DNA from: Candidatus Eiseniibacteriota bacterium
GTDB taxonomy: Bacteria; Eisenbacteria; RBG-16-71-46
NCBI GenBank assembly: GCA_963707915.1
Contig: OY970178.1
Coordinates: 1 to 64,000, forward strand
Length of the DNA: 64,000 nt
Direction: 5' to 3'
Positions 13,085 to 36,354 of this stretch are shown piece by piece; within the stretch, counting starts at the first letter, position 1, and each line of letters begins with the position of its first letter. Made by a program: the position numbers and the translations under genes. The notes under the pieces were generated by a model. The model did no database searches. It was not told the origin of the DNA and saw only the letters and a program-made list of their open reading frames with translations.

Positions 13085-15023
13085 ATGAGACGTTCGACTC
13101 ACCGCTCTGCTGCTTCTGGGCGCGGCGCTCGCGTGCGTGTCGCCCGCGCTCGGACAGGCGAAGCGCGAGGACGCCATCTGGGCGCGCTCGACCGGCGGCG
13201 CTCCCATCACCCTCGACGGCGTGCTGAGCGAGCCGGCCTGGGCCGCCGCCGAGTCCACGATCGTCCGCTATGGCTACGACAGCGGCATCCCGGGCAGCGG
13301 CTTCCAGTACGAGGGGGGCAAGATCGTCAAGGACAGCACGTACGCGACGCTCAAGTTCCTGGTCTCGGGCAACTACCTGTACGTGGCCGCGATCGTGCGG
13401 GACAGTTCGGTCGGCGGGGACGTCGACTTCAACCGCGTCGACGGCCTCCTCATGCAGATGAAGGACCACACCTCGCTGGCGCGCCCGGCGCCGGCCCGCG
13501 AGTACATGTACTCGTGGTGGTCCCCCACGGACACGCTGAACATGCACCAGGCGGGCAGGGGCCCGTGCCTCCGCGGCTTCTGGGCCCCCCCCGACACGAA
13601 CTACGTGAACGGCTGCGACCGTCCGCGCTCCGCGGCGCAGATCGACGCGTGGGACGCCGCGTGCGTCGTGAACGGCGTCGCGAACCAGGACTCCTCCGGC
13701 GGCGCCCCGACCTACGACCGGGGCTACACGATGGAGCTGAAGTTCGGCCTCACGTCGATGGGCTACGACGTGACCCGCCCCGAGGGTGACATCGTCGAGT
13801 GGGGCGTCTCGATCAAGGACGCCGACTGGGTCTGGCCGCTGAACCTCAAGCGGTTCGGCTCCAACCGGACCTGGTGGCAGAGCCCGTGGGGCCTGGATTC
13901 CTGGTACGGCGAGGTCAGGATCTACGCGCGTCCCGACGTGACCGTCAGCTCGGGCCCGGTGGCGAACATCCCGCCCGAGGTGCGCATCCCCAACGCGGGC
14001 TACTGGCCGGCTCCGATCATCGACGGCCACCTCAACGAGCCGGTCTGGAGCATGGCGCCGAGTTTCGACATCCGCTGGGGCGACGACGCCCTGCGGGACA
14101 GCTACCCCGGCGTCGGGCGGTGGCGGTCCGGCCAGTACCAGCCCACCGTGAACGGCGGGCAGGCCTACGTGTCCGATCCCGGCGACGCGACCGTGCGCTG
14201 GTTCTTCAAGGCCGACACGCTCTACTTCGGCGTCGACGTGCGCGACCAGTGGGTCCAGTACGTCCCGCTGCTCGAGCGCTACGACGGCATCTCGGTGAAC
14301 CTGAACGACCGCGTGGCCCGCTGGCGCGACGGCAACCTCGAGGCGCGCTGGCTGACGTACATCGTGGGGCCCACCGGCAACGGGCTGGCCCTCGACTACC
14401 TGCCGTTCCTGCGCGACACCGCCATGGGCGCGCGCGTGGCGCTCACGCTCAAGGGCAACACCTTCGTCGACACCATCGGCTTCGCGCCGGACTCCGGCTA
14501 CACCATCGAGATGGCGGTCGACCTGACCAAGCTCGGCTACCCGCACGGCCTCGGCGACGGCTCGCTGTTCGTGGGGCTCAACCTGATGGACGGCGACTCC
14601 TTCGGGTCGTCCTCGACCGACTCGTACGCGACGCGGCAGTGGTGGTTCTGGCAGCAGCAGCGCGACTGCTGCCCGGCCTGGGCCTACCTGGACCCGAACC
14701 TCTTCGTGACGACCGACGTGTCGGGTTCGCCGGGCGCGGAGCGCTTCCAGCTGCTGGGCAACTACCCGAACCCGTTCCGCTCCCTGACCACGATCCATTA
14801 CTCGCTGGCGGCGGCCAGCGACGTAACGCTGGAGGTCTTCGACCTCCAGGGCCGGCTGGTGGTGAAGCGCGCGCTCGGGACGCAGGCGCCGGGCAGGCAC
14901 CAGGCCACGTTCTCGAACCCCGGCCTGCGTGCCGGGATCTACCTGTACCGCATGCGGGCCGCCGACGTGCTCTCGGGGGCGCTGCGTGCGTCGCTGTCCG
15001 GGAAGATGCTGCTGGTGAAGTAG
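13085..15023 (+). CDS. Secreted protein with two CBM9/DOMON-like domains and a T9SS type-A-like C-terminal domain (one +1 frameshift near 13097)
   Basis: AGGAGG-N7-ATG at 13085; deleting one base gives the signal peptide MRRSLTALLLLGAALACVSPALG, in frame with ORF 13137..15023. Repeated ITLDGVLSEPAW / PIIDGHLNEPVW; tail NYPNPF...VFDLQGRLV...GIYLYR...KMLLVK. Confidence 0.75.
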
Positions 15024-15118: not shown

Positions 15119-17782
15119 ATGCGTCGCGAGTGGAACCAGGGAGCCGTACGGAGAGCGTCGCTGGTCGGCGTTCTGCTGTTGTCGCTGTTGGTCGTCCACG
15201 CCGCCTGGGCCGGCACCACCGGCAAGCTCTCGGGCCGGGTGCTGGACAAGAAGAAACAGCCCCTGGCCGGCGCCAACGTCGCCATCCCGGTCGCGCGGCT
15301 GGGAGCGCTGAGCGACGCGGAGGGCCGCTACTCCATCATCGGGGTCCCCGCCGGGACCTGCGTGGTGAAGGTCAACCTGCTCGGCTACGGCCCGGTCGCG
15401 GTGCAGGACGTGCGCATCTCCGCGGACAACACCACGGCGCTCGACGTCGAGCTGGCCGAGGCGCCGCTGCTGATGAAGGAGGTCGTGATCTCGGCGCAGC
15501 GTCCGGTCGTGGACCTCAAGCTCACCAGCACGATGGCCACCGTGAGCCGCGAGGACCTCAAGACCATGCCGGTGCAGGAGCTGCAGGACGTGGTGAACCT
15601 GCAGGCCGGCGTGGTGGACGGCCACTTCCGCGGCGGGCGCCTGGGCGAGGTCCAGTACCAGGTGGACGGCGTCTCGGTGAACAACGCCTACGACAACTCG
15701 TCGAGCCTGCGCATCGACCGCTCGCTGATCGAGGAGGTGCAGGTCATCAGCGGCACCTTCGACGCCGAGTACGGGCAGGCCATGAGCGGCGTCGTGAACG
15801 CGGTGCTGCGTCGCGGGACCGACCGGTTCCGCTGGGACGCCGAGGTGTTCTCCGGCGGCTTCGTCTACTCGGGCGGCCGGCGGGACGTGGCGCCCTACTT
15901 CCGCGAGTTCCGCCCGGCGGGCGTCCGGAACTACCAGGTCAGCGTCAGCGGTCCCACCGGGCTGCCCAGGACCTTCTTCCTGCTGAGCGGCCGGCACTAC
16001 GTCTCCGAGGACTACCTGACTGCGCGGCGCGACTTCATGCCTGCCGACCGCCCGGCCCTCACCGGGCGCGCCACGGGCGACAATGAGAAGATGCCCCTGG
16101 GGTACGGCCACGAATGGTCGGGCGTGGGCAAGCTCACGAACCGCTCGCTCAAGAACGTCGAGCTGAACTACCAGGGGATCTTCAACGTGGTGGACGCGCA
16201 GCGCGCGAACTACGCCTTCCGCTTCAATCCCGACGGCATGTCGAAGCAGCACACCTTCTCGCTCGTGCACGGCCTGGACTGGACGCACACCCTTTCGAAG
16301 ACCACCTTCTACAACGTCAGCCTGCGGCAGAACTACTTCGACTACAAGGACATGGTCTACGACGACGTCTACGACCCGCGCTACGATGCGGCCGGGCCTC
16401 CGGTCGGGTACCCGGACTATCAGTACGGCGCGTACGTGCAGGGCGTGGACTTCGCGCGCTTCAAGCAGAAGACCAGCACGATCGTCTGGAAGAGCTCCTT
16501 CGTCAGCCAGGTCACGCGCGACCAGCAGATCAAGGTCGGGGCCGAGTTCGAGTGGCCGCACGTCTACTTCGGCAACCCGGGCTTCCTGGAGTACACGCAG
16601 AAGGGCGGGCGGGACTCGCTCTTCCGGCACGTGAACGAGCCCCCGAAGTACCCGGGGGTCCAGGAGTACCGGCCGTACGCGGCCGCGGCGTTCGCCCAGG
16701 AGGACCTCGAGTGGAACGACCTGCGCGTCCGCGGCGGCCTGCGCTTCGAGTACTTCGACGCGCTGGCCACGCTGCCCAGCGACCTCGCGAACCCGGCGAG
16801 CGACCCGCGACTCGCGCTGGTCGTCCCGTACCGGGCCGCCACGCGGAAGATGTCGCTGGCCCCGCGGCTGGGCGTGTCCTACCCGATCACGCGGGACGCC
16901 GCGCTGTTCTTCGCCTACGGGCACTTCTACCAGATGCCGCCGCTGCGGGACATCTTCCAGAACGCCGACTACAACGTCCTCAAGGACCTCCAGGCGAGCT
17001 CGGTCAGCTACGCCGTGCTGGGGAACCCGGACATCCGCCCGGAGAAGACCGTGCAGTACGAGTTCGGCTACAAGCAGGCGGTCACCGAGTGGCTGGGGGT
17101 CGACCTGAACGTCTTCTACAAGGACATCCGCGACCTGCTCGGCGTGGAGTTCATCTCGACCTACAACGACGCCGAGTACGCGCGCCTGACCAACGTGGAC
17201 TTCGGCAACGTCATCGGCTTCACCGTGGCGCTGGAGCAGCGCCGCCGCGGCCTGCTCAGCACCGCGCTCGACTACACCTGGCAGGTGGCGCGCAGGGCAA
17301 CTCGAGCGACCCGCGCGAGACCGCCACGCGGGCCGCGGCGGGCGCAGGACCCGCGCCCGCGGCAGATCCCGTTCAACTGGGACCAGCGGCACACGCTCAA
17401 CCTGACCGTGATGGTCTCGCGCCCGGCCGACTTCTCGCTGAGCGGCATCGTGCGCGTGGCGAGCGGGCAGCCCTACACGCCGGCCATCTCGGCGGGCTTC
17501 GGCGGCGGCCTCGGGACGAACTCGGGGCACAAGCCGACGGGCATGCTGGTGGACCTGCGCGGGGACAAGCGCATGCGCCTGGGCGGAATGGGCGCGAGCC
17601 TGTTCGCGCGCGTCTTCAACCTGTTCGACTCGCGGTTCTTCAACGGCTTCGTCTTCGACAACTCCGGGAGCCCGGACTACTCGCGCTTCCCGGAGGCGGA
17701 CCGGGTCCAACTGGCGAACCCGACGCGCTTCTACGGACCGCGGCGCATCGAGGTCGGCCTCACCCTGAACGCGGGGCGCTGA
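15119..17782 (+). CDS. TonB-dependent receptor with N-terminal carboxypeptidase-regulatory-like domain
   Basis: Signal peptide, GTTGKLSGRV..D...PLAGANV, plug (HFRGGR..EV.YQVDG...ISGTFDAEYGQAMSGVVN), GNPDIRPEKTVQYEFG, NLFD, terminal PRRIEVGL strand. A compensated +2/+1 frameshift at about 17291-17344 hides QGNSSDPRETATRAAAG. Confidence 0.9.
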   Translation: MRREWNQGAVRRASLVGVLLLSLLVVHAAWAGTTGKLSGRVLDKKKQPLAGANVAIPVARLGALSDAEGRYSIIGVPAGTCVVKVNLLGYGPVAVQDVRISADNTTALDVELAEAPLLMKEVVISAQRPVVDLKLTSTMATVSREDLKTMPVQELQDVVNLQAGVVDGHFRGGRLGEVQYQVDGVSVNNAYDNSSSLRIDRSLIEEVQVISGTFDAEYGQAMSGVVNAVLRRGTDRFRWDAEVFSGGFVYSGGRRDVAPYFREFRPAGVRNYQVSVSGPTGLPRTFFLLSGRHYVSEDYLTARRDFMPADRPALTGRATGDNEKMPLGYGHEWSGVGKLTNRSLKNVELNYQGIFNVVDAQRANYAFRFNPDGMSKQHTFSLVHGLDWTHTLSKTTFYNVSLRQNYFDYKDMVYDDVYDPRYDAAGPPVGYPDYQYGAYVQGVDFARFKQKTSTIVWKSSFVSQVTRDQQIKVGAEFEWPHVYFGNPGFLEYTQKGGRDSLFRHVNEPPKYPGVQEYRPYAAAAFAQEDLEWNDLRVRGGLRFEYFDALATLPSDLANPASDPRLALVVPYRAATRKMSLAPRLGVSYPITRDAALFFAYGHFYQMPPLRDIFQNADYNVLKDLQASSVSYAVLGNPDIRPEKTVQYEFGYKQAVTEWLGVDLNVFYKDIRDLLGVEFISTYNDAEYARLTNVDFGNVIGFTVALEQRRRGLLSTALDYTWQVARRATRATRARPPRGPRRAQDPRPRQIPFNWDQRHTLNLTVMVSRPADFSLSGIVRVASGQPYTPAISAGFGGGLGTNSGHKPTGMLVDLRGDKRMRLGGMGASLFARVFNLFDSRFFNGFVFDNSGSPDYSRFPEADRVQLANPTRFYGPRRIEVGLTLNAGR

Positions 17783-17828
17783 CATGCGCGCGCGGAGAGC
17801 TTCGGGAAGGGGACATCGAGAGGTGCTC

Positions 17829-20800
17829 ATGAAGGGCCTGGGTCTCGGCATCTGGCTGGTCGCCCTGCTGGCGGCGGCACCCGCGCGGGCGGACCTCGCG
17901 CCCGTCGTCCCGTTCAGCCTGCGCGGGGACAGCGACTGGGAGCGCTCCGGCTCCCACGACGCGAACCGGATCCGCACGGTGTTCTGGAACTACGGAATGG
18001 TCGGCGACTACCCGCCCGATCCCGGCAACGTGGACCTGAGCGTCTTCCACTCCGTCGAGGTGCCCAAGGGCAGCGGGATGAACTACACGCGACGGCATCA
18101 CGCCCTTCGTGCTGGCCCGGATCGTCCAGACCACGGGCGACACCGCCATCATCATGGAGACCGGCTTCCGCGAGCGGCAGGGCATCAGCCCGGCCGGCAA
18201 CCGGATCATGCGCTTCGAGCCGCGGCCCGGGTTCTTCCAGGCCAGCGCGGACACCAACAAGGGGCGCTCGCCGGCCATCAGCACCGACCCGCGCACCTGG
18301 CCCAACCGGTGGCCGGACCGGCTGTCCGACCCCGACGACCCGGGCTGGACCGGGAGCTGGAACGGCTACTTCGGCAAGCGGCCGGCGGCCGACCAGGAGA
18401 GCTTCACGGTGATGGACGACAACTACTACGACGCCTGGGACTACGCGGCCGACTCCCGCGCCGCGGTGGGCGACACCACGCGCCACGGGCTCGGCCTGCG
18501 CGTCGAGGTGCGCGGGTTCCAGTGGGCCAACCCGCAGGCCGGCAACGTCATCTTCTGGCACTACGACATCACCAACGAGAGCACGACCGACTACGACGAC
18601 AACATCATCTTCGGCCTGTACATGGACTCCGGGCGTCGGCGGCTCGGCGCTCTCCTGCGACGGCATCTACGAGTCGGACGACGACAACGCGTACTTCGAC
18701 CGCTCCGCGGGGCCTCAACCTGGTCTACACCTGGGACAGCTACGGCCACGGCGTGGACCTGAGCGGCAACTGCGGGCCGACCGGCTACCTCGGCTACGCC
18801 TACCTGGAGACGCCCGGCAACCCGTACGACGGCATCGACAACGACGACGACGGCATCATCGACGAGCGCCGCGACGGCGGGCCCGGGCACGCGGATCGAC
18901 GGCCAGGACGCGATCCGCGCCTACGTCGACCGCGCACTACGACCTGGCGAAGTTCGAGGCCGTTCTACGGCCCGCTCGAGAAGCGCCCGGCCTACCGCGC
19001 CGGGACCTGGTGGACGGGCGACGAGGACATGGACTGGGTGGCGGAGTTCCACGACGTGGGCGCCGACGGCGTGGCCGGCACGCACGACACCGGCGAGGGC
19101 GACGGCATCCCGACCGAGGGCGAGCCCAACTTCGACCGCACCGACCAGGACGAGTCGGACCAGATCGGCCTGACCGGCTTCAAGATGAACCGCATCAAGG
19201 CCGGCGACGGCAACCCGAACCCGATCATCGACGACATCCTCTTCTACGAGCAGGCCAAGCACTGGCCGCACCCGGCTCTGGGAGCACTTCACCGACGCCA
19301 ACCCCGCCGCCCGCTTCGACTCGGCGGTGGCGGCCAACTACAACATCGGGTTCCTGTTCGCCTCGGGCCCGTTCAAGCTGCCGGCGGGGCAGCGCGAGCG
19401 CTTCAGCCTCGCGCTGGCCTACGGCGAGGACCTGACCGAGCTGCGCGAGACGGTGCAGACCGTCCAGTTGATCTACAACGCGAACTACCAGTTCGCGGTC
19501 CCGCCCCCGGCGCCGACCGTGACGGCGGAGGCCGGGGACGGGCACGTGCGGCTCTCGTGGGACGACGTCGCGGAGCGGGGCGTGGACCCGGTGACCAACG
19601 AGTTCGACTTCGAGGGCTACCGCATCTACCGCTCGACCGACCCCGAGTTCCGCGACCCGCAGATCGTGGCCACCGGCTCGAACGCCCTCTGGCTCCCGAA
19701 CGGGAAGCCCATCGCCCAGTTCGACCTCAAGGACGGCCGGACCGGCTACTCGCGCAAGGTCGATCGGCGGGATCGGCTACTACCTGGGCGACGACAGCGG
19801 CATCACGCACACCTGGACCGACACGCACGGTGACGAACGGCCAGCAGTACTACTACGCGGTGTGCGCCTACGACTACGGCTTCGATCCCGGCTCGGACTC
19901 GCTCGCGATCTTCCCCTCGGAGAACTCGATCACGGTCTCGCGCACGCCGCGCGGCGGACTGATCCTGCCGCGGAACGTGGTCGCGGTGCGGCCCAACCCG
20001 CGGGTGCCCGGCTACGTGCCGGCGAGCTCCGGCGAGGTGCGGAAGGTCGCGGGCGACGGCTCGGGCACGGTCCGGGTGGAGGTCGTCAATTCGGCGATCG
20101 TCCCGAACGGCAGCCTGTTCCGACTCGGCTTCCTGGCGGATTCCCCGGACAGCGTCCACGCGACCTGGTACGAGCTGCGGGACAGCACCGCGCACACCAC
20201 GCTTGTTCTCGCGCGGGGCGCGACTTCGACGGGCAGGGGATCGGCTCGACCGCCGCGGGCCTGCTTCCGCTCGTGACCACCCACCCGGTGGCCACCGTGG
20301 ACAGCCTCGCCTCCGGCTTCCGGGCCGGCAGCAACTCGAACGCCCGGCTCTATTCCTTCTACACCGGCGCGCTGCCGCAGAACCAGCGCCGCACCGGCTA
20401 CCCCGACGACATCTCGATCGTCTTCGCGGACGCGCTGGTCGACACCGGTCTCGCGTGGGGGCCGGTCCCGCGCGCGCCGGCCCGGTTCCGGGTCTACGCC
20501 CGCACCGACACGGGCGACGTGCGGCTCCCGTTCCGCTTCCGGGACTACAACCGCGACGGCACGCTCGACTCGCTGGGCGAGTTCATCGAGGTCGTCTCGC
20601 CCGGCCCGCTGGTGCGGATCGACTCGCTCGTCACCTGGCGCCTCCAGCTCGACCCGCGTGGTCCCACCGGGCTTCCCGGCATCGTGGCGCCCCGCGCGGG
20701 CGACGTCTACGACCTCAAGGTCGTCCGCCCGTTCAACGTGTCCGACGTCTTCGTCTTCAGCACCGCGGGCGAGACGGCGGGGCCCGCGGCGGCCCGCACG

Positions 20801-21106
20801 GAGCCCTACGTCGTGCCCAATCCGTACGTGGGATCCGCCAGCTTCGAACCGGCGCGCTACGCGATCTCGGGCCGCGGCGAGCGGCGCATGGAGTTCCGCA
20901 ACGTGCCGCGGGGCTGCACCATCCGCATCTACACGGTGCGCGGCGACCTGGTGCGCACGCTCCGGCACGACGGGTCGCTCGACGGCTATGTCGCCTGGGA
21001 CCTGCGCACCAAGGACAACCTCGACGTCGCGCCCGGGCTGTACATCTTCCACGTCGAAGCTCCCGGAGTGAGCGCGTACACCGGGAAGTTCGCGGTCATC
21101 AAGTGA
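17829..21106 (+). CDS. Large (~1090 aa) secreted Asp-rich protein with FN3-like domain and PNPY...GKFAVIK C-terminal domain; broken by about 11 single-base insertions
   Basis: Coherent peptide segments move between ORFs 17784, 18109, 19327 and 19862. Removing 11 bases gives 3267 nt = 1089 codons. Features: signal peptide, DGIDNDDDGIIDE and DVGADG..GT.DTGEGDG Ca-binding-like motifs, PPPAPTVTAEAGDGHVRLSWD...FEGYRIYRS, C-terminal RIYTVRGDLVRTL...WDLRTKDNLDVAPGLYIFHVE...GKFAVIK. Confidence 0.75.
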
Positions 21107-21120
21107 GCGCGGGGGCGGCC

Positions 21121-22131
21121 ATGACGCGGCGGATCCTGACCTGGACGATGGCGATGGTGCTCGCGGCGCTCCCGGCGTTCGGCCAGAGCAAGACCGGCAC
21201 GACGATCGGCCAGTTCTTGCTCATCGAGCCGAGCGCGCGCATCGCCGGCATGGGGAACGCCGGCGTGTCGGCGCGGGACGGTCTCGACGCGGTCTACTTC
21301 AACCCGGCGGTGATCGGGCTGCTGCACGGCCACAACCTGCAGTTCACCCACAGCGCCTGGCTGGCGGACATCACCTACGACTACGCCGCGGCGTCGATCC
21401 CGGTCGGCAAGTGGGGCAGCCTGGTCGCGAGCCTGACCGCGCTCAACTCCGGCGAGATCGCCGTGCGCACGGTGGCGCAGCCGCTCGGCACGGGGGAGCG
21501 CTACTCGGTCTCGGACGTGGCCATCGGCGTCGGGTACGGGCGCCAGGTCACCGACCGCTTCTCCGCGGGCGCGAAGGTCACCTACGTGCAGGAATCGATC
21601 TGGAACTCCTCGATGAGCACGGTGGTGTTCGACTTCGGGACGCTCTACCAGGTGTCGGAGCGCGGCCTCAGCATCGGGGCGAGCCTCTCGAACTTCGGCA
21701 CCAGCGGGCGCTTCAGCGGGCGCGACCTGAGCATCGTCTATGACGGCGACCCGACCCGGTACGGCGACAACGGCGCGCTGCCGGGCGAGGTCACCACCGA
21801 GGCCTTCGCCGTGCCCACGTTCTTCCGGGTGGGCGTCGGCTTGCCGGTCCGCCTGGGCCCGCAGGCGAAGCTCCAGCTCGCGGTGGACGCGTTCCACCCG
21901 AGCGACAACACCGAGGGGATGAGCGCGGGGGCGGAGCTGGAGGTCGCGCGGCGGCTCGCATTGCGCGCGGGCTGGCAGGACGCCTTCCAGCAGGACACCG
22001 AGTTCGGCCTGACGCTCGGGGTCGGGCTGTGGGGCAAGCTGGACGTCTACGGCTACAAGGTGGACTACGGCTGGGCGGACCACCGGCGGCTCGGGGGCAC
22101 GCACCGCGTGACCATCGGACTGTCGTTCTAG
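21121..22131 (+). CDS. PorV/PorQ family outer-membrane beta-barrel protein
   Basis: Signal peptide, then KTGTTIGQFLLIEPSARIAGMGNA, YFNPA, WLADITYDY; amphipathic strands; ends THRVTIGLSF. Confidence 0.85.
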   Translation: MTRRILTWTMAMVLAALPAFGQSKTGTTIGQFLLIEPSARIAGMGNAGVSARDGLDAVYFNPAVIGLLHGHNLQFTHSAWLADITYDYAAASIPVGKWGSLVASLTALNSGEIAVRTVAQPLGTGERYSVSDVAIGVGYGRQVTDRFSAGAKVTYVQESIWNSSMSTVVFDFGTLYQVSERGLSIGASLSNFGTSGRFSGRDLSIVYDGDPTRYGDNGALPGEVTTEAFAVPTFFRVGVGLPVRLGPQAKLQLAVDAFHPSDNTEGMSAGAELEVARRLALRAGWQDAFQQDTEFGLTLGVGLWGKLDVYGYKVDYGWADHRRLGGTHRVTIGLSF

Positions 22132-22182: not shown

Positions 22183-23757
22183 ATGCGAAGGCTCATCCTG
22201 GCGCTGACGCTGCTCGCGATCGGCGCCGCCGACGTCCGGGCGCAGACCACCGCGGCCCTGCTGGACACCGTGCAGCACGCCTCGTTCCTGTACTTCTGGA
22301 GCGAGGCCAACCCGGCGAACGGCCTGATCAAGGACCGCAGCACGGCCACGTCGCCGGCCAGCATCGCGGCGGTCGGCTTCGGGCTCTCGTCCATCTGCGT
22401 GGGCATCGACCACGGCTGGGTCACCCGCGAGGCGGGCCGGGACCGCGTGCGGACGACCCTGCAGACCTTCTGGACCGAACCGCAGGGCAGCGGCGCGAAC
22501 GGCAACATCGGCTACAAGGGCCTCTTCTACCATTTCCTCGACATGACCACCGCGGTGCGGACGTGGAGCTGTGAGCTCTCCACGATCGACACGGCGCTGC
22601 TGTTCGCGGGGATCCTCGATGCGAAGCAGTACTTCACCGGGGGCGACCCGGTCGAGACCGAGATCCGGGCCCTGGCCGACTCGATCTACTACCGCGCCGA
22701 CTGGGAGTTCGCCCGCAACGGCGCGCAGGGGATCTACATGGGCTGGAAGCCGGGCACCGGCTACTCGGGCTTCGGCCTGTGGCAGGGCTACAACGAGGCC
22801 ATGATCCTCTACCTGCTGGCGCTCGGCTCCCCCACCCACCCGGTCCCCGCGAGCACGTGGAACTACTGGATGAGCGGCTACCAGTGGACGACCCAGTACG
22901 GCCAGACCTACGTCGTCTTCCCGCCGCTCTTCGGCCACCAGTACACGCACTGCTGGGTGGACTTCCGCCAGCGGCAGGACGCCTTCGGGCGGGCCCGCAA
23001 CATCACCTACTTCGAGAACTCGCGCCGGGCCACCCTGGCGCAGCGCGCCTACGCCACCGCGAACCCGGGTGGCTGGGTCGGCTACAGCGACAGCCTGTGG
23101 GGCCTGACCGCCTCGGACATCAAGGGCGGGTACAACGCCCGCGGGGCGCCGCCGGCGATGAACGACGACGGCACGATCACGCCCACGGCGCCGATCGGCT
23201 CCATCGCCTTCGCGCCGGACGAAGTCATCCCCGTCGTGCGGAACCTGTTCCAGAACTACCCGCTGCTGTGGGGGGCCTACGGCTTCCGGGACGCCTTCAA
23301 CCTGAGCACGGTCCCGGCCTGGTACGATACCGACTACCTGGGCATCGACCAGGGACCGATCGTGCTGATGATCGAGAACCACCTCACCAGCGCGGTGTGG
23401 AACCGGTTCATGCTCAACCCGGACATCCAGAACGGGCTCACGCGCGCCGGCTTCACCGGCATCCTGGGCGTCGAGGACGCGCCGGCGCTCGCGCCGCAGG
23501 AAGTGCTCGCCTGGAGCCAGCCGAACCCCTTCACCCGCTCGACCACGATCCGCTTCCGGCTGCCCGTCGCGGGCCCGGTCCGGCTGGGCGTGTACGACCT
23601 GGCCGGGCGGCTGGTGTCCCGCCTGCTGGAAGAGACGCGGCCGGCGGGAGAGAATGCGGTCGCGTGGGAGCCGGGGGGGGTGCCGAGCGGGGTCTATTAC
23701 GTGCGGCTCGAGTCCGCCGGGCGCACGGTGACGAAGCGCTGCGTGAAGCTCCAGTGA
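22183..23757 (+). CDS. Glucoamylase-family (GH144-like) endo-beta-1,2-glucanase candidate with T9SS-like C-terminal domain
   Basis: ASIAAVGFGL, YKGLFYHFLD, ELSTIDTALL, YNEAMILY, LFGHQY, YFENSRRAT, WGLTASD, YGFRDAFN, GIDQGPI..MIEN; tail QPNPF...YDLAGRLV...SGVYYVRL...KRCVKLQ. Confidence 0.85.
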   Translation: MRRLILALTLLAIGAADVRAQTTAALLDTVQHASFLYFWSEANPANGLIKDRSTATSPASIAAVGFGLSSICVGIDHGWVTREAGRDRVRTTLQTFWTEPQGSGANGNIGYKGLFYHFLDMTTAVRTWSCELSTIDTALLFAGILDAKQYFTGGDPVETEIRALADSIYYRADWEFARNGAQGIYMGWKPGTGYSGFGLWQGYNEAMILYLLALGSPTHPVPASTWNYWMSGYQWTTQYGQTYVVFPPLFGHQYTHCWVDFRQRQDAFGRARNITYFENSRRATLAQRAYATANPGGWVGYSDSLWGLTASDIKGGYNARGAPPAMNDDGTITPTAPIGSIAFAPDEVIPVVRNLFQNYPLLWGAYGFRDAFNLSTVPAWYDTDYLGIDQGPIVLMIENHLTSAVWNRFMLNPDIQNGLTRAGFTGILGVEDAPALAPQEVLAWSQPNPFTRSTTIRFRLPVAGPVRLGVYDLAGRLVSRLLEETRPAGENAVAWEPGGVPSGVYYVRLESAGRTVTKRCVKLQ

Positions 23758-23827
23758 GGTCCGGCACGCAGCTGGTAGGTGTCCAGGCGGCTTGCGATGT
23801 GGCGGCCCGCCCGTGAAAGTGACGGCC

Positions 23828-24886
23828 ATGGCGACCATCCGGGACGTGGCGCGCGCCAGCAACGTGTCGATCGCGACGGTTTCGCGCGTATTCAACAAGA
23901 GCCCGCTCGTGAGCGAGGAGACGCGGCAGCGCGTCGCCGCCGCCGCGAGCACGCTCGGCTACTGGCCCAACGAGATCGCCCGCAGCCTCATCACCAACCG
24001 GACGCACACGCTGGGTCTCCTGCTGCCCGACCTGCACGGCGAGTTCTTCTCCGAGGTCATCCACGGCGCGGACCTCACGGCGCGGGAGAAGGGCTTCCAC
24101 CTGCTGGTGTCGAGGTCCAGCTCGAGCGCGGCGGAGCTGACCGACGTGCTGCGCTCGATGCGCGGGCGGGTGGACGGCTTGGTGGTGATGGCCCCGGGAC
24201 TGGACGCCTCCCGCGCGCTGCGGCAGGCCGCGGGCAGCGTGCCGGTCGTCCTGCTGAACCCCGAGGTGGAGCTGTCGGGCTGCGACTCGGTGAGCATCGG
24301 CAACTTCCAGGGCGCGTACGGGATGGTGCGGCACCTCGCCGCCCTCGGGCACCGGCCGATCGCCACCATCACCGGGCCACCCCAGAACATCGACGCGCGC
24401 CAGCGGCTCGAGGGCTATCGCGCCGGGCTGCGCGACGCGGGGCTGGAGGTGCGCCCCGACCTCGAGTTCCACGGCGATTTCACCGAACGGTCCGGCTACG
24501 AGGCGGCGCGCGAGCTGGTGCGCCAGCAGGGCGGGCCGATGGCGGTCTTCGTCGCCAACGACCACATGGCCCTCGGCGTGATGGGCGCGCTGCAGGAGGC
24601 CGGCCGGAGTGTCCCCGAGGACGTCGCGCTCGCCGGGTTCGACGACATCGCGATGGCGCGCTACCTGACTCCCGCGCTGACCACGGTGCACGTCGACATG
24701 CTGCAGATGGGCGAGCGGGCGGTCGATCTGCTGCTCGACCCGGAGCGGGACGTGGCGTCGCGGGAGGGCCGGCACGAAGTGATGCCCACCCGGTTGCTGG
24801 TCCGCGCCTCGTGCGGGGCGAGCCGCCCGCACGGCGCGGGGCCCGCCTGGGACCGCGGCGGGCCGGTCTCCCTGCCGCCTCGATAG
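23828..24886 (+). CDS. LacI family transcriptional regulator
   Basis: HTH ATIRDVARASNVSIATVSRV, YWPNEIARSL hinge helix, ANDHMALG, VPEDVALAGFDD, PALTTV. Confidence 0.95.
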   Translation: MATIRDVARASNVSIATVSRVFNKSPLVSEETRQRVAAAASTLGYWPNEIARSLITNRTHTLGLLLPDLHGEFFSEVIHGADLTAREKGFHLLVSRSSSSAAELTDVLRSMRGRVDGLVVMAPGLDASRALRQAAGSVPVVLLNPEVELSGCDSVSIGNFQGAYGMVRHLAALGHRPIATITGPPQNIDARQRLEGYRAGLRDAGLEVRPDLEFHGDFTERSGYEAARELVRQQGGPMAVFVANDHMALGVMGALQEAGRSVPEDVALAGFDDIAMARYLTPALTTVHVDMLQMGERAVDLLLDPERDVASREGRHEVMPTRLLVRASCGASRPHGAGPAWDRGGPVSLPPR

Positions 24887-24893
24887 ACCGCCC

Positions 24894-26363
24894 ATGGAGC
24901 TCCGCTGGCGCGACGGGAAGGTCCTGCGGCGGCCGCTGCTGGTCGCCGCGCTGCTCACCGCGGCGTTGGCCGCGGGCTCCGGGGAGGTCCCTCCGGCGGG
25001 GCGCGCGCACCCGGTGTCCCGGGCGCGGCTGGCGCGCGAGGCGGCGTTCCTCGACACGCTCGAGCAGCGCACGTTCCGCTGGTTCTGGGACCTCACCGAT
25101 TCGTCCACCGGCCTCACGCCGGACCGCGCGCCCACGCCCTCGTTCGCGAGCGTGGCGGCGGTGGGTTTCGGGCTCACCGCGTACCCGATCGGCGCGGAGC
25201 GCGGCTGGGTGACGCGTCCGCAGGCGCGCGATCGCGCGCTCGCGACGCTGCGCTTCCTCTGGCGGGCGCCGCAGGGCGACGCGCCGCGGGGGTGCACCGG
25301 CTACCGCGGCTTCTTCTACCACTTCCTCGACCCGCGGACCGGGCACCGCTTCGAGGACGTGGAGCTCTCCACCATGGACACCGCGCTGCTGCTGGCCGGG
25401 GCGCTCTTCTGCCAGTCCTACTTCGACCGGGACGATCCGCGGGAGGCCGAGGTCCGCGCGCTGGCGGAGTCGCTGTACGCGCGCGTGGACTGGGGCTGGG
25501 CGCAGGTGCGCCCGCCGATGGTCGTGCACGGCTGGGACCCGGAGAGCGGCTTCCTGCCCTACGACTGGCGCGGCATGAACGAGTCCATGCTGGTCCCCAT
25601 CCTGGCGCTGGCCTCGCCCACGCACCCGCTCGGGCCGGAGGTCTGGGCCGACTGGCTGAGGGGCTGCCGCTGGGGTACGTTCCAGGGCATCGAGCACGTG
25701 GGCTTCGCGCCGCTCTTCGGCCACCAGTACTCGCAGGTCTGGCTCGACCTGCGCGGGCTCCAGGACAGCCTGATGCGCGCGCACGGCATCGACTGGTTCG
25801 AGAACTCGCGGCGCGCCACGCTGGCCCAGCGGGCCTACGCGCTCGCGAACCCGGGCGGCTTCAGGGGCTACGGCGAGCGCCTCTGGGGCCTCACGGCGTG
25901 CGACGGCCCGGTGAACGACACCGTCGCGGTGGGCGGCCGCCGGCTGAGGTTCACCAGCTACGAGGCGCGCGGGGCCTCGTTCCGGGAGGTCGTCGACGAC
26001 GGCACGGTCTCGCCGGCGGCCGCCGGCGGCTCGGTCGCCTTCGCGCCCGAGGTCGTGGTCCCCATGCTGATGGCGGTGCGCGACACCTACGGCGAGCAGG
26101 TGTTCGGCGCCTACGGATTCGTGGACGCGCTCAACCCCACGCTCGACGTCGCGACCAGGGTCCAGCACGGGCGCGTGGTCCCGGGGGTGGGCTGGTTCGA
26201 CATCGACCGCCTCGGCATCGACCAGGGACCGATCCTCGCCATGATCGAGAACCACCGCAGCGGACTGGTCTGGAGGACGCTGCGGAAGAACCCGCACGTC
26301 GTGCGCGGCCTTCGCGTCGCGGGGTTCACGGGCGGATGGCTGGACTCGACCCGGGTGAAGTGA
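24894..26363 (+). CDS. Second glucoamylase-family (GH144-like) beta-1,2-glucanase candidate, exported, no C-terminal sorting domain
   Basis: ASVAAVGFGLTAYPIG, YRGFFYHFLD, ELSTMDTALL, LFGHQYS, FENSRRAT, WGLTACDGP, DDGT, YGFVDALN, GIDQGPILAMIEN. Confidence 0.85.
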   Translation: MELRWRDGKVLRRPLLVAALLTAALAAGSGEVPPAGRAHPVSRARLAREAAFLDTLEQRTFRWFWDLTDSSTGLTPDRAPTPSFASVAAVGFGLTAYPIGAERGWVTRPQARDRALATLRFLWRAPQGDAPRGCTGYRGFFYHFLDPRTGHRFEDVELSTMDTALLLAGALFCQSYFDRDDPREAEVRALAESLYARVDWGWAQVRPPMVVHGWDPESGFLPYDWRGMNESMLVPILALASPTHPLGPEVWADWLRGCRWGTFQGIEHVGFAPLFGHQYSQVWLDLRGLQDSLMRAHGIDWFENSRRATLAQRAYALANPGGFRGYGERLWGLTACDGPVNDTVAVGGRRLRFTSYEARGASFREVVDDGTVSPAAAGGSVAFAPEVVVPMLMAVRDTYGEQVFGAYGFVDALNPTLDVATRVQHGRVVPGVGWFDIDRLGIDQGPILAMIENHRSGLVWRTLRKNPHVVRGLRVAGFTGGWLDSTRVK

Positions 26364-27734
26364 TGCGAGGGCCCGCGGGCTTCGACCGGAGGGCCCGAGG
26401 CTGGCCCGGCCATCCGGCGCAGGTGCTCGAGTGGGGGGCCCGAGGCGGGTCCGCGGGCCTGCTCGCGCTGTTCCTCGCCGTCGCCCTCGCCGGCTGCCGT
26501 GGCACTGGAGACGGGCGCACCACCATCCGCTTCTGGGCCATGGGGCGCGAAGGGCGAGGTCGTGCAGGAGCTGGTGCGCGACTTCGAGCGCGAGAACCCC
26601 ACGATCCGCGTCGTGGTCCAGCAGATCCCCTGGGGCGCGGCCCACGAGAAGCTGCTCACCGCGCACGTGGGGCGCTCCACGCCCGACGTGGCGCAGCTCG
26701 GCAACACCTGGATCGCGGAGTTCACCGCCCTGCGCGCGATCGAGCCGCTCGACGGCCGGATCGCCGCGTCGTCCGCCGTCCGCCCGGGCGACTACTTCCG
26801 GGGGATCTGGGACACGAACGTCATGGACGGCGTGGCCTACGGCGTTCCCTGGTACGTGGACACGCGCGTGCTCTTCTACCGGCGCGACCTGCTCGCGCGG
26901 GCGGGCTACGACTCCATGCCCGGCTCGTGGGACGAGTGGCGGCGCGCCATGGAGGCGGTCCAGCGCGTGGCGGGGAAGGACCGCTTCGCGATCTTCCTGC
27001 CGACCAACGAGTACACGCCCTGGATCGTCTTCGGGATGCAGGCGGGCTCCCCGTTGCTGAAGGACGGCGACACGCGCGGCGCGTTCAGCGGCCCGGCCTA
27101 CCGGCGCGCGGCGGCGTTCTACCTCGACCTCTTCGCGCGGGGCCTGGCCCCCGCCGTGCAGGGCGCCTCGATCGCGAACCGTTACCAGGAGTTCGAGCGC
27201 GGCACGATCAACATGTACATCAGCGGACCGTGGGACGTGGGGGAGTTCCGGCGCCGGATCGCCCCCGCGCTGCAGTCCGCGTGGGCCACCGCGCCGCTCC
27301 CCGGTCCCGGCGGCCCCGCCACCGGCGTCTCGACCGCGGGCGGCTCGAGCCTGGTCCTGTTCCGCGCCTCGCGCCACCCGGACGAGGCGTGGCGGCTGGT
27401 CGAGTTCCTCTCCCGGCCCGAGCAGCAGTTGCGCTTCTGGCGACTGACCGGCGACCTGCCGGCGCGGGTCGAGGCCTGGCGCGACACCGCCCTCACGAAC
27501 GACCCGAACGTGCGCACGTTCGGCCGGCAGCTCGAGCGGGTGGTGTCGACGCCCCAGATCCCGGAGTGGGAGCAGATCTCGCTGCGGCTGCAGGACAAGG
27601 TCGAGGCGATGGTGCTCGGGCACGCGCCGCCCGATTCGGCGCTCGCCGCGCTCGACCGCGACGTCGACCGCATCCTCGAGAAGCGCCGCTGGCTGGTGGA
27701 GCGCGGGCGCCAGCGTGCCGGGGGCGCGCCGTGA
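26363..27734 (+). CDS. Sugar ABC transporter substrate-binding lipoprotein (one +1 frameshift near 26552)
   Basis: ATG overlaps the upstream TGA; lipobox LAGC, then TIRFWAMGRE|GEVVQELVRDFE joins ORF 26499..27734 (PDVAQLGNTW, VPWYVDTRVLFYRRDL). Confidence 0.85.
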
Positions 27735-28621
27735 GGGGCGTGGTCGAGGCCCGGCAGAACCGCGCCGGCTGGGCGTTCGTCGCCCCGGCCCTGGCGCTCA
27801 TCGGGATCTTCTTCTTCGTGCCGGTGCTGGCCGGCCTGTTCCTGTCGTTCACCGACTTCGACATCTACGCCATCGGCCGGCCGGACACCGCGCGCTTCAT
27901 GGGCCTGGAGAACTACCGCCAGGTGCTCGCCAACCCGCTCTTCTGGCAGGCGCTCGGCAACACCTTCCTCTTCGTGCTGGTCGGCGGGCCGCTCTCGGTG
28001 TTCACCTCGCTCGTGGCCGCGCTGCTGGTCAGCGCGAAGCGGGTGCGCTATCCAGGTCTCTTCCGCTCGGTCTTCTTCATGCCGGTGGTCACCACGCTGG
28101 TGGCGGTGGCGATCGTCTGGCGCTACCTCTACCACCCGCAGTACGGCCTGCTGAACTGGGCGCTGGGCGCGGTCGGGATCCATCCGATCGACTGGCTCGG
28201 CGATCCCCACTGGGCCATGTTCGCCATCATCCTGATGGCGGTGTGGAAGAACTTCGGCTACAACATGCTCATCTTCATCGCCGGGCTGCAGAGCATCCCC
28301 GAGGACCTCTACGAGGCGGCCCACCTCGACGGCGCCGGGGGCTGGGCCCGGTTCCGCCACGTCACGCTGCCGAGCCTCGCGCCGACCTTCCTGTTCGTGG
28401 GCGTCATGACCATGCTCGGGAACTTCCAGTTCTTCGCCGAGCCCTACGTCATGACGCAGGGTGGCCCGCTCAAGGCCACCACCACGGTCGTGCTCCTGAT
28501 GTACGAGGAGGGCTTCCGCTGGTGGCGCATGGGGCTCGCCGCGTCGCTGGCCTTCGTGCTGTTCGTGATCATGTTCCTCGGCACCCTGATCCAGATGCGC
28601 CTGCAGGGGGAGCGTCGATGA
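27731..28621 (+). CDS. Carbohydrate ABC transporter permease
   Basis: GTGA overlap; FMGLENY, AGLQSIPEDLYEAAHLDGA (EAA motif), YVMTQGGP. Confidence 0.93.
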   Translation: MRGVVEARQNRAGWAFVAPALALIGIFFFVPVLAGLFLSFTDFDIYAIGRPDTARFMGLENYRQVLANPLFWQALGNTFLFVLVGGPLSVFTSLVAALLVSAKRVRYPGLFRSVFFMPVVTTLVAVAIVWRYLYHPQYGLLNWALGAVGIHPIDWLGDPHWAMFAIILMAVWKNFGYNMLIFIAGLQSIPEDLYEAAHLDGAGGWARFRHVTLPSLAPTFLFVGVMTMLGNFQFFAEPYVMTQGGPLKATTTVVLLMYEEGFRWWRMGLAASLAFVLFVIMFLGTLIQMRLQGERR

Positions 28622-29445
28622 GGCGCAGGGCGCCGTTCGCCACGCTCGCCCTGCACGCCGCGCTCGTGTTCGGGGCGCTGGTGACGCTCACACCGCTCCT
28701 GTGGATGGTCTCGGCCTCGTTCATGTCGCCGGGCGAGTCGAACAGCTTCCCGCCCCGGCTCCTGCCGCAGGTCCCCACGCTCCAGAACTACGTCGACCTG
28801 TTCACGCGCCTGAACCTGGCGCGCTACCTGCTGAACAGCAGCCTGGTCGCGGTCTCGGCGACGCTGATCTCGCTCGTCATCAACTCGATGGCGGGCTACG
28901 CCTTCGCCAAGCTGCGCTTCGCGGGCCGCGAGCGCGTCTTCCAGGTCCTGCTCGGCGCGCTCGTCATCCCGGGGCAGGTGGGCATGCTGCCGCTCTTCCT
29001 GCTGCTCAGGGCCATGGGGCTGGTGAACACCATGGCCGGCGTGGTGGTCCCGTTCATGGCGGGCATCTTCGGCATCTTCATGATCCGCCAGTACGCGCTG
29101 AGCATCCCCGACGACCTGCTCGACGCGGCGCGCGTGGACGGCGCGGGCGAGTACCGGATCTTCTGGAACATCGTGATCCCGGTCATCCAGCCCATCCTGG
29201 TGACGCTCGCGGTCTTCACCTTCCTCTCCGCCTGGAACGACTTCATGTGGCCGCTGATCGTGCTGAGCGACGACGCCAAGTACACGCTGCCGGTGGCGCT
29301 CGCGAGCCTCTCGGGCGAGCACGTGCAGGACACCGGGCTGATGATGGCGGGCTCGGTGCTCACCGTGCTGCCGGTCGTCGTGCTCTTCGTCGTGCTTCAG
29401 CGCGCGTACATCCGCGGCGTGATGATGGGGAGCGTGAAGGGATGA
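28618..29445 (+). CDS. Carbohydrate ABC transporter permease
   Basis: ATGA overlap; NSMAGYAFAKL, SIPDDLLDAARVDGA, AWNDFMWPLI, TLPVAL. Confidence 0.93.
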   Translation: MRRRAPFATLALHAALVFGALVTLTPLLWMVSASFMSPGESNSFPPRLLPQVPTLQNYVDLFTRLNLARYLLNSSLVAVSATLISLVINSMAGYAFAKLRFAGRERVFQVLLGALVIPGQVGMLPLFLLLRAMGLVNTMAGVVVPFMAGIFGIFMIRQYALSIPDDLLDAARVDGAGEYRIFWNIVIPVIQPILVTLAVFTFLSAWNDFMWPLIVLSDDAKYTLPVALASLSGEHVQDTGLMMAGSVLTVLPVVVLFVVLQRAYIRGVMMGSVKG

Positions 29446-32400: not shown

Positions 32401-32636
32401 TGGCGCTGCGCGGGCTCTCGACCTCCCTCGGGCCGCTGACCTGCACGCTGCGCGGACGCGGGCCGGGGATCGAGGTGCGCGTCGAGGCGGGACTGCAGGT
32501 GCCGCCCGGTGGCATCGTGCTGCGCGCCCCGGGGAACTTCCGCCGGGCCGAGGTGAACGGCGTGGCCACCCCGGTCGGACCTGCGGGCGAGGTGGTGCTG
32601 CGTCGGCTGCCGGCGACGGTGGTGCTCAGGCCCTGA
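29442..32636 (+). CDS. Secreted multidomain protein: CBM-like + discoidin (F5/8C, CBM32) + putative (alpha/alpha)6 glycoside hydrolase domain
   Basis: Signal peptide; galactose-binding-like domain ending GTVWLDDL; F5/8C (ASS...AVDG...W...WLELDLG...ARYVRL); C-terminal QPGSRSYSRSWIRDG, EHDAAGE, SISHEGYS, YWDDLF, PYEMR, QWAE, DLPHTW. Confidence 0.7.
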   Translation: MSARPVAMRLAVLAAAWALPVAAATAAAAPAGTPVDGFDSAATWTAQPADGVEMRISDEPDAGPAGGPGRALRVDFRFVKGGGYAVLRRRLDLALPDNYRFTFRVRGDCPPENLEFKLVDSTGENVWWHNERDFRFPRDWRTVVVRRREISFAWGPAGGGELRRAAALEIAITAGSGGSGTVWLDDLVLTPLPPPGAVPPLVVARASSARAGRAAGLAVDGSARSAWVSAPSDPAPWLELDLGGTREFGGLVVDRAKEWRSPGYVAEVSDDRVTWRAVRTVGNVRRERDHLDLPETEARYVRLRALGSGALAVSEVRVMPLEWSSTPAAFYRAVALDAPRGTYPRAILGEQSFWSVVGADGARQEGLLGQDGMLETGQGAYSIEPFLFTGGRLVDWADVKPEATLEDGSLPIPSVRWQGDDLELTVTAFADGPADASSLVARYRVRNLGAAPASATLYLALRPFQVNPPAQFLGVPGGVAPLRSLFADGGVIRVNGDRGVVCLAPPDGFGAIGSADGDVVGDYLRDGRLPPRTHAVDTLERASGALAYRLELAGGAEDEVAIEVPLATRPGPPPAGSDDAWRSAVEARLGACRAAWRARADRMSLRLPGAAADVARALEAQLGWILVNRDSAGIQPGSRSYSRSWIRDGALTCTALLRLGHPEEVREFIEWFAPYQYADGKVPCCVDARGSDPVPEHDAAGEFVYLVAEYYRHTGDRALVERQWPAVTRATAYLDSLRQLRRTPEWRVAGKEEFFGLLPPSISHEGYSAKPMHSYWDDLFALRGFKDAAFLAGALGREADARRFAAARDEFQRELAASVGAAMRRHHIDYVPGCADLGDFDATSTTIALDPVQAGDVLPRAALERTFERYWGFFRDRRDGVAPWEAFTPYEMRTIGAFARLGWRERADSLLAYFMAFRRPPGWQQWAEVAWHDERTPHFIGDLPHTWVGSDFVRSVLDLFAFERESDSTLVLAAGVPLDWVMQEGGVALRGLSTSLGPLTCTLRGRGPGIEVRVEAGLQVPPGGIVLRAPGNFRRAEVNGVATPVGPAGEVVLRRLPATVVLRP

Positions 32637-35141: not shown

Positions 35142-35212
35142 GTCCGCTCCAAGGTGGCTGCGGGGAAGGCCGCGGGAGCGCCCGCGGCGAGGGCGTCAGA
35201 ATGTCGAACGTA

Positions 35213-35280
35213 CCGAAGCCCGCGTGCCTGCGCACGCGGGCTTCGGGTCCACGGAAGACGATCCGAGGGATGTTCTTCCG
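35213..35280 (-). other. Tandem hairpins between the 35285-36121 gene and GH94 (terminator or mRNA-stabilising element)
   Basis: Perfect 15-bp stem ccgaagcccgcgtgc-ctgc-gcacgcgggcttcgg (35213-35246) plus cggaaga...tcttccg (35252-35280). Confidence 0.6.
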
Positions 35281-35284
35281 GTGT

Positions 35285-36121: not shown

Positions 36122-36354
36122 GAGTTTGGTTCCTCCGTGCTGCGGGTGCGGGTACGGGGTGTGCGGATGCGAAACGTGATGAGGGCCTGCTGCCTCGTCG
36201 AAGCATGACAGCCTGCGTGCCCGAGCGGAAGGAGCCCCCGTGCGTTCGCACGCGATCTCACCGAACGAGCGCTACCCTGATGCGCGAATTGTAGCGCTTG
36301 TTCAGTGACGGCACACCCGGTCTTCCGTCGGGCTGAGCAGCTGTCTTGCCTGTA

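Follow-up and report, generated by a model that had tools for sequence, protein, structure and literature searches.

Organization of the locus

We analysed a 64,000-nucleotide stretch of DNA (hereafter the window) from a Candidatus Eiseniibacteriota bacterium, which forms the start of a genome assembled as a single contig (GenBank GCA_963707915.1, contig OY970178.1; 3.62 Mb, 94.8% complete). The G+C content of the window is 68-77%. Open reading frame (ORF) listing, three-frame translation and codon-position GC place three adjacent genes on the + strand within positions 15119-22131. These encode a TonB-dependent transporter (TBDT), a large secreted protein (termed the partner) and an outer-membrane barrel of the PorV/PorQ family (Table 1). 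The original prediction, made from the sequence alone, had described the same three co-directional genes and proposed that the partner is exported by a type IX secretion system (T9SS), is held at the surface by the barrel and takes the place of SusD beside the transporter. A scan for promoters and terminators gave nothing exceeding chance.

The partner gene is not one ORF in the assembly; as judged by codon-position GC and three-frame translation, it is scattered across all three frames. In same-genus relatives the partner is encoded by one ORF of ~1090-1220 aa, and DNA alignment against three intact relatives mapped 11 single-base insertions to approximately positions 18090-20221. Once these are removed, the protein has about the length of ~1090 aa that had been predicted. 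We read the insertions as probable assembly errors because all 11 are +1, the partner segments keep 65-91% identity to same-genus relatives throughout, and the TBDT gene carries a similar compensated pair (a short frame detour with +2 near 17288 and +1 near 17344). Furthermore, short-read contigs of relatives, though not of the source strain itself, are without several of the extra bases (8 of the 11 are visible among the alignment rows listed). For the same reasons, the gene is unlikely to be a pseudogene.

The trio is conserved and co-inherited

A strong partner orthologue (E 1e-40 or better) is present in 31 of 41 genomes, the source genome included. Twenty loci were fetched from these, and all carry the barrel gene and a glycoside hydrolase (GH) family 144 gene downstream of the partner, while 19 carry the TBDT gene upstream and the contig of the last one ends early. 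A scan of GTDB yielded 113 confirmed stretches, 80 of which were used and which overlap in part with the 20 fetched loci. Apart from the query's own record they have 58-75% identity, and they are labelled as Eisenbacteria, Ignavibacteria, KSB1, Calditrichota, Krumholzibacteria, Gemmatimonadetes, Rhodothermales and others.

When only those of the 80 loci with enough flanking DNA are counted, a TBDT gene lies directly upstream of the partner in 70 of 72, a barrel gene directly downstream in 63 of 64, and 55 of 56 evaluable loci have both. An initial, stricter count came to 64/66, 59/64 and 47/52, the difference being due to second paralogue matches and one longer gap. Thus, the adjacency of the trio exceeds chance. 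The misses in the final count, L088 and L124, come from one genome: the former has a 2-kb gap between TBDT and partner, and the latter a truncated partner (L124:10001-11662) without TBDT or barrel. At another locus (L074:261-3393), a second PorV-like gene and a GH144 gene are located upstream of the trio, which suggests two tandem cassettes.

Trees built from 42 loci in which all four genes are complete exhibit 0-1 supported conflicts within the trio and 5-10 when the trio is compared with the adjacent upstream gene. A mirror-distance test gave rho values of 0.65-0.73 within the trio versus 0.17-0.39 with the GH144 and LacI genes. We prefer the trees to this test because the best-hit GH144 set took in non-orthologues and because the upstream gene also reached 0.59-0.71. 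The survey across genomes that had been proposed for the trio therefore finds it both conserved and co-inherited.

The locus lacks the hallmarks of SusC/SusD

The TBDT combines an N-terminal extension with a plug and a barrel domain (Table 1), the latter scoring 96.4 bits, and five TonB-type proteins (PF03544) exceed the cut-off in the genome. Against the SusC model TIGR04056 it reaches 52-55 bits (cut-off 368), and the match is confined to the N-terminal extension. Neither SusD nor SusC is detectable in the genome. Specifically, SusD model PF07980 found nothing in the source genome while its control matched in B. thetaiotaomicron, and PF14322 found nothing in 41 genomes, relatives included, while its controls matched. 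The lack of a SusD-like gene, which the original prediction had noted near the TBDT, thus extends to the genome. The five intact partner homologues have no Pfam match to SusD, and no conserved lipobox was found by a regular-expression test in 120 close homologues, nine of which carry a loose pattern at no fixed place; the partner is therefore not classed as a lipoprotein. Every test of SusC/SusD membership that could be run (SusC score, SusD family, lipoprotein) failed.

Architecture of the partner protein

No Pfam family accounts for the partner, the sole match being a weak one to FlgD_ig. A single-sequence search gave no PDB match, and the neighbours of the protein in the Atlas are unnamed clusters. 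On these grounds we rejected identity with a known family. As had been anticipated, Pfam, PDB and predicted fold together indicate that the partner is neither a SusD homologue nor a member of a known enzyme family. The partner family includes 3558 clusters at 50% identity (E up to 0.001), many of them probably domain-only matches, and named close homologues are mostly from Candidatus Eisenbacteria.

Structure work was carried out on an intact relative from the same genus (L022; 1068 aa, 70-sequence alignment). The resulting model has a mean predicted local distance difference test score (pLDDT) of 85.1 and a predicted template modelling score of 0.76, and is nearly all beta, with short helices only. 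In this model the N-terminal domain appears as a beta-supersandwich that matches 9ju0 (Z 20.3, root-mean-square deviation (rmsd) 3.0, 260 residues aligned) and 1lf6 (Z 19.7). Its best matches (Z 16-20) are enzymes of the GH15, GH94 and GH65 type, with GH94 enzymes at Z 16-17, and they mostly cover the N-terminal parts of these enzymes, which are non-catalytic. Mutarotases match at Z 12-14, and aldose 1-epimerases together with the GH174 endo-fucanase at Z 12-14.6. Although the predicted fold is the same, identity to the GH15/GH94/GH65 supersandwiches and mutarotases is 5-14%, and the partner differs from them by a long Asp-rich insertion. In addition, no catalytic (alpha/alpha)6 barrel follows the supersandwich in the L022 model, so that the protein does not qualify as an enzyme of the GH15/GH94/GH65 type.

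Conserved acidic residues include D167, E169, D176, D259, D260 and E301. Most of the acids that are invariant across the family sit in the Asp-rich insertion, where D311, D313, D315, E320, D371, D382, D386, D393, E405, D412, E415 and D417 (L022 numbering) are at least 96% conserved among near and distant members. DxDxDG-type motifs are present, in line with the Asp-rich motifs that had been pointed out, and from its sequence this insertion may bind calcium. Three short inserts (residues 48-54, 122-126 and 247-252) hardly vary within this clade, while most distant paralogues are without them, as would suit substrate-specific loops.

The FN3-like domain that had been predicted to be present is supported by a weak sequence match as well as by fold matches (Table 1). 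It is followed by an all-beta region, modelled with a pLDDT of 91.6, which is probably a stalk. The clear fold matches listed for it include no known carbohydrate-binding module and consist of partial matches to FlgK/FlgL (Z 8-9.5; 4ut1, Z 9.5, rmsd 2.2, 85 of 262 residues aligned).

The C-terminal domain (CTD) resembles those of PorZ and PorU. Profile searches match the tail to 5m11 (PorZ, E 0.0032) and 6za2 (PorU, E 0.021), and the modelled tail superimposes on the PorZ CTD (5m11) with Z 12.5 and rmsd 2.2 over 94 aligned residues at 26% identity. The predicted C-terminal Ig-like sandwich and a signal peptide, the latter read by eye, are both as expected for a protein with such a tail. In contrast, the type-A models TIGR04183 and PF18962 match none of three intact near homologues, and only one of 16 distant homologues is matched, below the cut-off. 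Since both genes that flank the trio pass TIGR04183 (Table 1), the tail is distinct from the type-A tails nearby, as originally proposed.

The barrel and the secretion system

The third gene scores well above the cut-off of the PorV/PorQ family model (Table 1), which bears out its earlier assignment, and the protein matches F. johnsoniae PorV (6h3i) with E 5e-17. It falls below the equivalog cut-offs of both PorV proper (NF033710, 56.4 versus 250 bits) and PorQ proper (NF033711, 89.6 versus 220 bits). The genome contains eight genes of this family, four of which are located inside cassettes like the one described here and one beside porU. Such paralogues are abundant elsewhere: all 61 genomes that were sampled have them, with 6-18 matches each.

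The genome carries sprA over the cut-off (C1:3487918-3494967), as do 29 of 29 other holders tested, and also porU, over the cut-off, together with porV (C1:470953-476679). The canonical set of SprA, PorU and PorV is thus present. The partner and its barrel are not themselves the porU-porV pair, given that the real pair lies at C1:472003-476676; against the PorU and PorZ models the partner scores 12-19 bits (cut-offs 420 and 260), with the match confined to the tail. Many proteins with type-A tails are encoded in the genome without a neighbouring transporter.

PorZ and PorU carry CTDs described as uncleaved and as being retained by PorQ and PorV respectively (PMC10202324, PMC11285876), and cognate barrels have been proposed to protect such tails from cleavage (PMC10202324). 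The original prediction had instead invoked cargo with type-B CTDs and its PorP/SprF barrel as a precedent. This is not borne out: no type-B tail or PorP/SprF model is among the matches listed for the partner and barrel proteins in an NCBIfam scan, the barrel belongs to the PorV/PorQ family and the tail is PorZ/PorU-like, so that the closest precedents are PorZ-PorQ and PorU-PorV.

Neighbouring genes and likely substrate

The enzymes encoded around the trio (Table 1) suggest beta-1,2-glucan as the substrate, and in gene content the locus resembles a beta-1,2-glucan cluster. PF10091, which we take to correspond to GH144, is represented twice, and the first of these hydrolases matches 5gzh, an endo-beta-1,2-glucanase. 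Among related loci, GH144 occurs in 45 and GH94 in 36 of 47 that could be evaluated. Of 52 loci whose upstream DNA suffices for the comparison, 51 encode the upstream secreted protein.

Several other features of these regions were observed. The upstream protein is two-lobed and is present in tandem copies in loci of the KSB1/Calditrichota type (L050, L056, L062, L082 and L093), with three copies in L122. The N-terminus of the ATP-binding cassette (ABC) binding protein (approximately 26360-26560, with a lipoprotein-like signal) is in a different frame from the body, probably owing to a further assembly frameshift. Two putative ORFs without a Pfam match (32769-36208) separate the six-hairpin protein gene from a GH35 gene further downstream. 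Finally, 19 of 80 loci (e.g. L063:12095-12928) encode a 277-aa secreted protein that has no Pfam match and ends in a tail of the WGxVKxLFR type.

Table 1. Features of the cassette, of the surrounding locus and of further cassettes in the genome.
Feature	Position	Strand	Description
TBDT	15119..17782	+	N-terminal extension (PF13620/PF13715), plug (PF07715), barrel (PF00593)
Large secreted partner	17829..21106	+	~1088 aa; 11 single-base insertions in assembly; alternative in-frame ATG start at 17784
Partner N-terminal domain	~17930..19500	+	Predicted galactose-mutarotase-like beta-supersandwich; best conserved part
Asp-rich insertion inside N-terminal domain	18807..19170	+	Near-invariant D/E; putative calcium binding
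Partner FN3-like domain	~19501..19990	+	3mpc E 0.018; FN3 matches by Foldseek
Partner all-beta middle region	19991..20803	+	Probably stalk; partial FlgK/FlgL beta-domain match
Partner C-terminal sorting-type domain (PNPY...GKFAVIK)	20804..21106	+	Resembles uncleaved PorZ/PorU tails
PorV/PorQ-family outer-membrane barrel	21121..22131	+	336 aa; NF033709 182.9 bits, cut-off 90
Upstream secreted protein	13137..15023	+	Weak CBM9-like (PF06452 E 0.0025); type-A T9SS tail (TIGR04183 35 bits, cut-off 23)
PF10091 (GH144-type) hydrolase	22183..23757	+	Type-A T9SS tail (TIGR04183 34.7 bits); 8xul E 1e-107; 5gzh E 1e-51
LacI-family regulator	23792..24886	+	PF00356, PF13377
Second PF10091 (GH144-type) hydrolase	24894..26363	+	Without tail; PF10091 E 2e-73
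ABC sugar transporter	26499..29445	+	Binding protein and two permease-like genes; PF01547, PF00528; both permeases kept in relatives
F5/8-type C (CBM32-like) and six-hairpin glycosidase protein	29442..32636	+	PF00754, PF22633, PF17389
Further cassettes	C1:131301-138683, 1033965-1040863, 3070121-3077199		TBDT, partner and barrel in source genome

Paralogous cassettes and solo homologues

The source genome contains four cassettes (at 15k, 131k, 1034k and 3070k), each with its own barrel. The gene order of the 3070k cassette is TBDT, barrel, another gene, partner. When the genome was searched with a profile of the partner tail, the four cassette partners and one solo protein ranked at the top of 21 matches, with the 1034k partner represented by two short pieces that rank barely above type-A tails.

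The partner family has a solo branch. Homologues of 800-900 aa at loci L131 and L133-L144 have the same tail and weak matches to the N-terminal and FN3 domains, and have no barrel neighbour. Tandem pairs occur in L131 and L136, and the solo copy of the source genome (C1:2946238-2950153) is apparently split into two ORFs. One conserved type of trio adjoins a gene for a GWxTD-domain protein, identified by Pfam in L128 and L130 and by eye in the source genome (C1:1032470-1033999). In L128 and L130, mreB and a Glu/Leu/Phe/Val dehydrogenase gene are also located near the trio, a housekeeping-like setting.

A model for the cassette

To assess contact between transporter and partner, we predicted a complex of the relative's proteins, using TBDT residues 394-886, which lack the plug and the first strands of the barrel, and partner residues 18-524. 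The two alignments comprised 48 rows each, drawn from the same loci. The complex scored 0.55 (runs of 0.55, 0.56 and 0.50) compared with 0.29 for the best of three controls; the runs share at least 69% of their contacts, and the pLDDT of the partner is at least 72. Of 157 solved complexes, 116 reach the mark applied to such scores, as do 2 of 215 mismatches, counts that hold only roughly for custom alignments. Close relatives with a solved structure exist for neither protein, which makes it less likely that the pass reflects memorised structures. The interaction that the original prediction had called for thus receives weak support, for a partial barrel and the N-terminal domain, and we regard the prediction as a modest shift toward contact.

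The reading that we favour, with a probability of about 0.5, is that the partner is a barrel-tethered surface protein that caps a TonB importer. Under this model, the partner would be exported through the SprA pore by means of its PorZ/PorU-like tail, and the tail would stay uncut and be held at the surface by the cognate PorV-like barrel, in the way that PorQ retains PorZ and PorV retains PorU. The partner would then reach over via its stalk and FN3 domains and sit on the outer loops of the TBDT as a lid, with the supersandwich capturing beta-1,2-glucan oligomers for import. The surface GH144 enzyme would cleave the polymer and the cassette would take in the oligomers, with uptake completed by the second GH144 enzyme and the ABC system. 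Further copies of the cassette would handle different substrates. The parts of this model differ in strength. Export of the T9SS type with tethering by the cognate barrel is quite probable; direct contact between partner and TBDT is somewhat more likely than not; and capture of the substrate by the partner as a lid has at best an even chance.

A number of observations weigh against this reading. The complex score lies in a range (0.60 or under) that, among entries passing the mark, holds just 18 of the 157 solved complexes yet both of the mismatches, and the run used custom alignments, a truncated barrel and proteins of a relative. Agreement among the trees is partly due to linkage and kinship, and the upstream gene used for comparison occurs in tandem copies in some loci. 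Beta-supersandwich folds may be catalytic, as they are in mutarotases and GH174. SusD models match in 8 of 29 distant holders outside Eisenbacteria, so the cassette does not exclude SusD. With regard to the T9SS core on which the original prediction depended, sprA, porU and porV stand, while porM was not detected in 41 genomes or in 29 other holders and porN was not detected in the one genome searched (no positive control matched for either), and a porK match in the source genome is below the cut-off. These results suggest that the export route is atypical or unrecognised.

The genomic context of other family members also weighs against it. By eye, the other three cassettes of the genome adjoin redox, glycolysis-type and other secreted-protein genes rather than glycoside hydrolases. 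Among 20 hand-picked loci of distant homologues, seven hold trios and 13 have no TBDT and barrel in trio arrangement, although short contigs hold some of the latter and in one the TBDT gene is divergently placed. Of the 17 genes scanned next to the seven distant trios, none matches a glycoside hydrolase family. Because trios occur among non-glycan genes, the cassette is not glycan-specific as a class, and because 13 of the 20 distant homologues are without a trio, a PorZ/PorU-like tail does not in every case depend on a barrel encoded next to it. The proposal of an alternative polysaccharide utilisation architecture is supported in part, by the conservation of the trio and by its non-SusD partner.

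Four other explanations were considered. The partner could be an enzyme of a new family (a hydrolase, lyase or mutarotase) that is tethered to the surface by the barrel and trims glucan beside the TBDT. The fold shared with aldose 1-epimerases and the GH174 endo-fucanase and the conserved acids D167, E169, D176, D259, D260 and E301 would suit an enzyme, as would the high conservation of the partner across phyla, with a mean pairwise distance of 0.35 versus 0.45 for both TBDT and barrel. Nevertheless, the best fold matches mostly cover non-catalytic parts of GH15/GH94/GH65-type enzymes, the model has no helical catalytic barrel, the locus already encodes two GH144 enzymes, and the same architecture is found with transporters of non-glycan loci; we consider this explanation unlikely. 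It is likewise improbable that the partner is a tethered glycan binder that is co-regulated with the TBDT and does not cap it, by analogy with SusE/F-type proteins. The solo homologues and the weak range of the complex score are compatible with such a role, whereas the near-invariant adjacency, the better agreement of trees within the trio than with the other neighbouring secreted protein, and the greater conservation of the partner relative to the TBDT speak against it.

The barrel and partner might instead form a private unit that assembles or stabilises large-loop transporters and captures no substrate. BamG, a 14-stranded barrel of the FadL family that binds the surface lipoprotein BamH (PMC12611786), offers a precedent, the barrel described here matches BamG weakly (NF053685, 21.7 bits; 9n2d, E 0.063), and the cassette occurs whatever the substrate context. 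This possibility is doubtful given that the barrel is far closer to PorV, that the partner has a fold of the carbohydrate-enzyme type and no conserved lipobox, and that one specialised copy per locus suits specificity better than general assembly. Finally, the TBDT could serve export or energising, helping to secrete or release the partner in place of the seemingly missing PorL/M motor. In Myxococcus, secretion of PopC reportedly requires a TBDT (PMC6434023), and the genome described here has five TonB-type genes, with porM and porN not detected. However, many proteins with type-A tails have no neighbouring transporter, sprA is present in all holders tested, and the LacI, GH144 and ABC importer genes point to uptake, which makes a role in export very unlikely. 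We therefore retain the capped importer as the best reading.

Comparison with known systems

If this reading is correct, the cassette would work like SusC/SusD. As in SusC/SusD (RagA/RagB), a TBDT with an N-terminal extension is followed by a dedicated secreted partner, the locus includes glycoside hydrolases and a regulator, and several paralogous copies are found per genome. Unlike SusC/SusD, the TBDT is far under the SusC cut-off, the PorV-like barrel belongs to the unit as a third gene, and the locus employs LacI together with an ABC importer. SusD has a helical fold, whereas the partner is all-beta. The partner also differs in its length of ~1090 aa, its T9SS-type tail and its lack of a conserved lipobox from SusD, described as a surface lipoprotein (PMC12611786).

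The T9SS attachment complex of P. gingivalis provides the nearest parallel for the barrel. In PorZ-PorQ and PorU-PorV, as here, a protein with an uncleaved-CTD-like tail is encoded beside a barrel of the PorV/PorQ family. The partner, however, is neither a sortase nor PorZ, a separate porU-porV pair exists in the genome, and the pair described here is tied to a TBDT. SprB-SprF likewise clusters a type-B CTD cargo with its cognate barrel, which has been proposed as its anchor (PMC10202324), but those systems include no transporter, and here the barrel scores with the PorV/PorQ family and no type-B tail model is among the matches listed. In the Bacteroidota barrel assembly machinery, a FadL/PorV-like barrel, BamG, likewise keeps hold of a surface protein; BamH differs in being a lipoprotein that works with BamA, and the barrel here is far below the BamG cut-off of 250 bits.

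A literature search found no description of the trio, as had been claimed, with subscription papers and supplements mostly outside its coverage; a paper on the lipocone (PMC12419801) had no bearing on it. The trio is real, conserved and apparently undescribed. What would be new is a transporter-plus-lid system with an unrelated lid and anchor, while the principle of a cognate barrel for a tail is already known from the T9SS attachment complex. More broadly, deep-branching phyla related to the Fibrobacterota-Chlorobiota-Bacteroidota group may possess a second, independently built utilisome, with a T9SS-exported supersandwich lid, a PorV paralogue as the anchor instead of a lipid, specificity loops particular to each cassette and SprA export without a recognisable PorL/M motor. 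We offer this wider view tentatively, as its chances fall a little short of even.

SusC/SusD serves as the marker by which polysaccharide utilisation loci are found and interpreted. If the proposed function is correct, uptake loci of abundant uncultured phyla (Eisenbacteria, Ignavibacteria, KSB1, Calditrichota, Krumholzibacteria and others) would have been missed or misread. The model would also explain the abundance of PorV/PorQ paralogues in these genomes, assign a role to a large family of proteins that has no name, and bring the import of nutrients together with protein secretion in a single machine.

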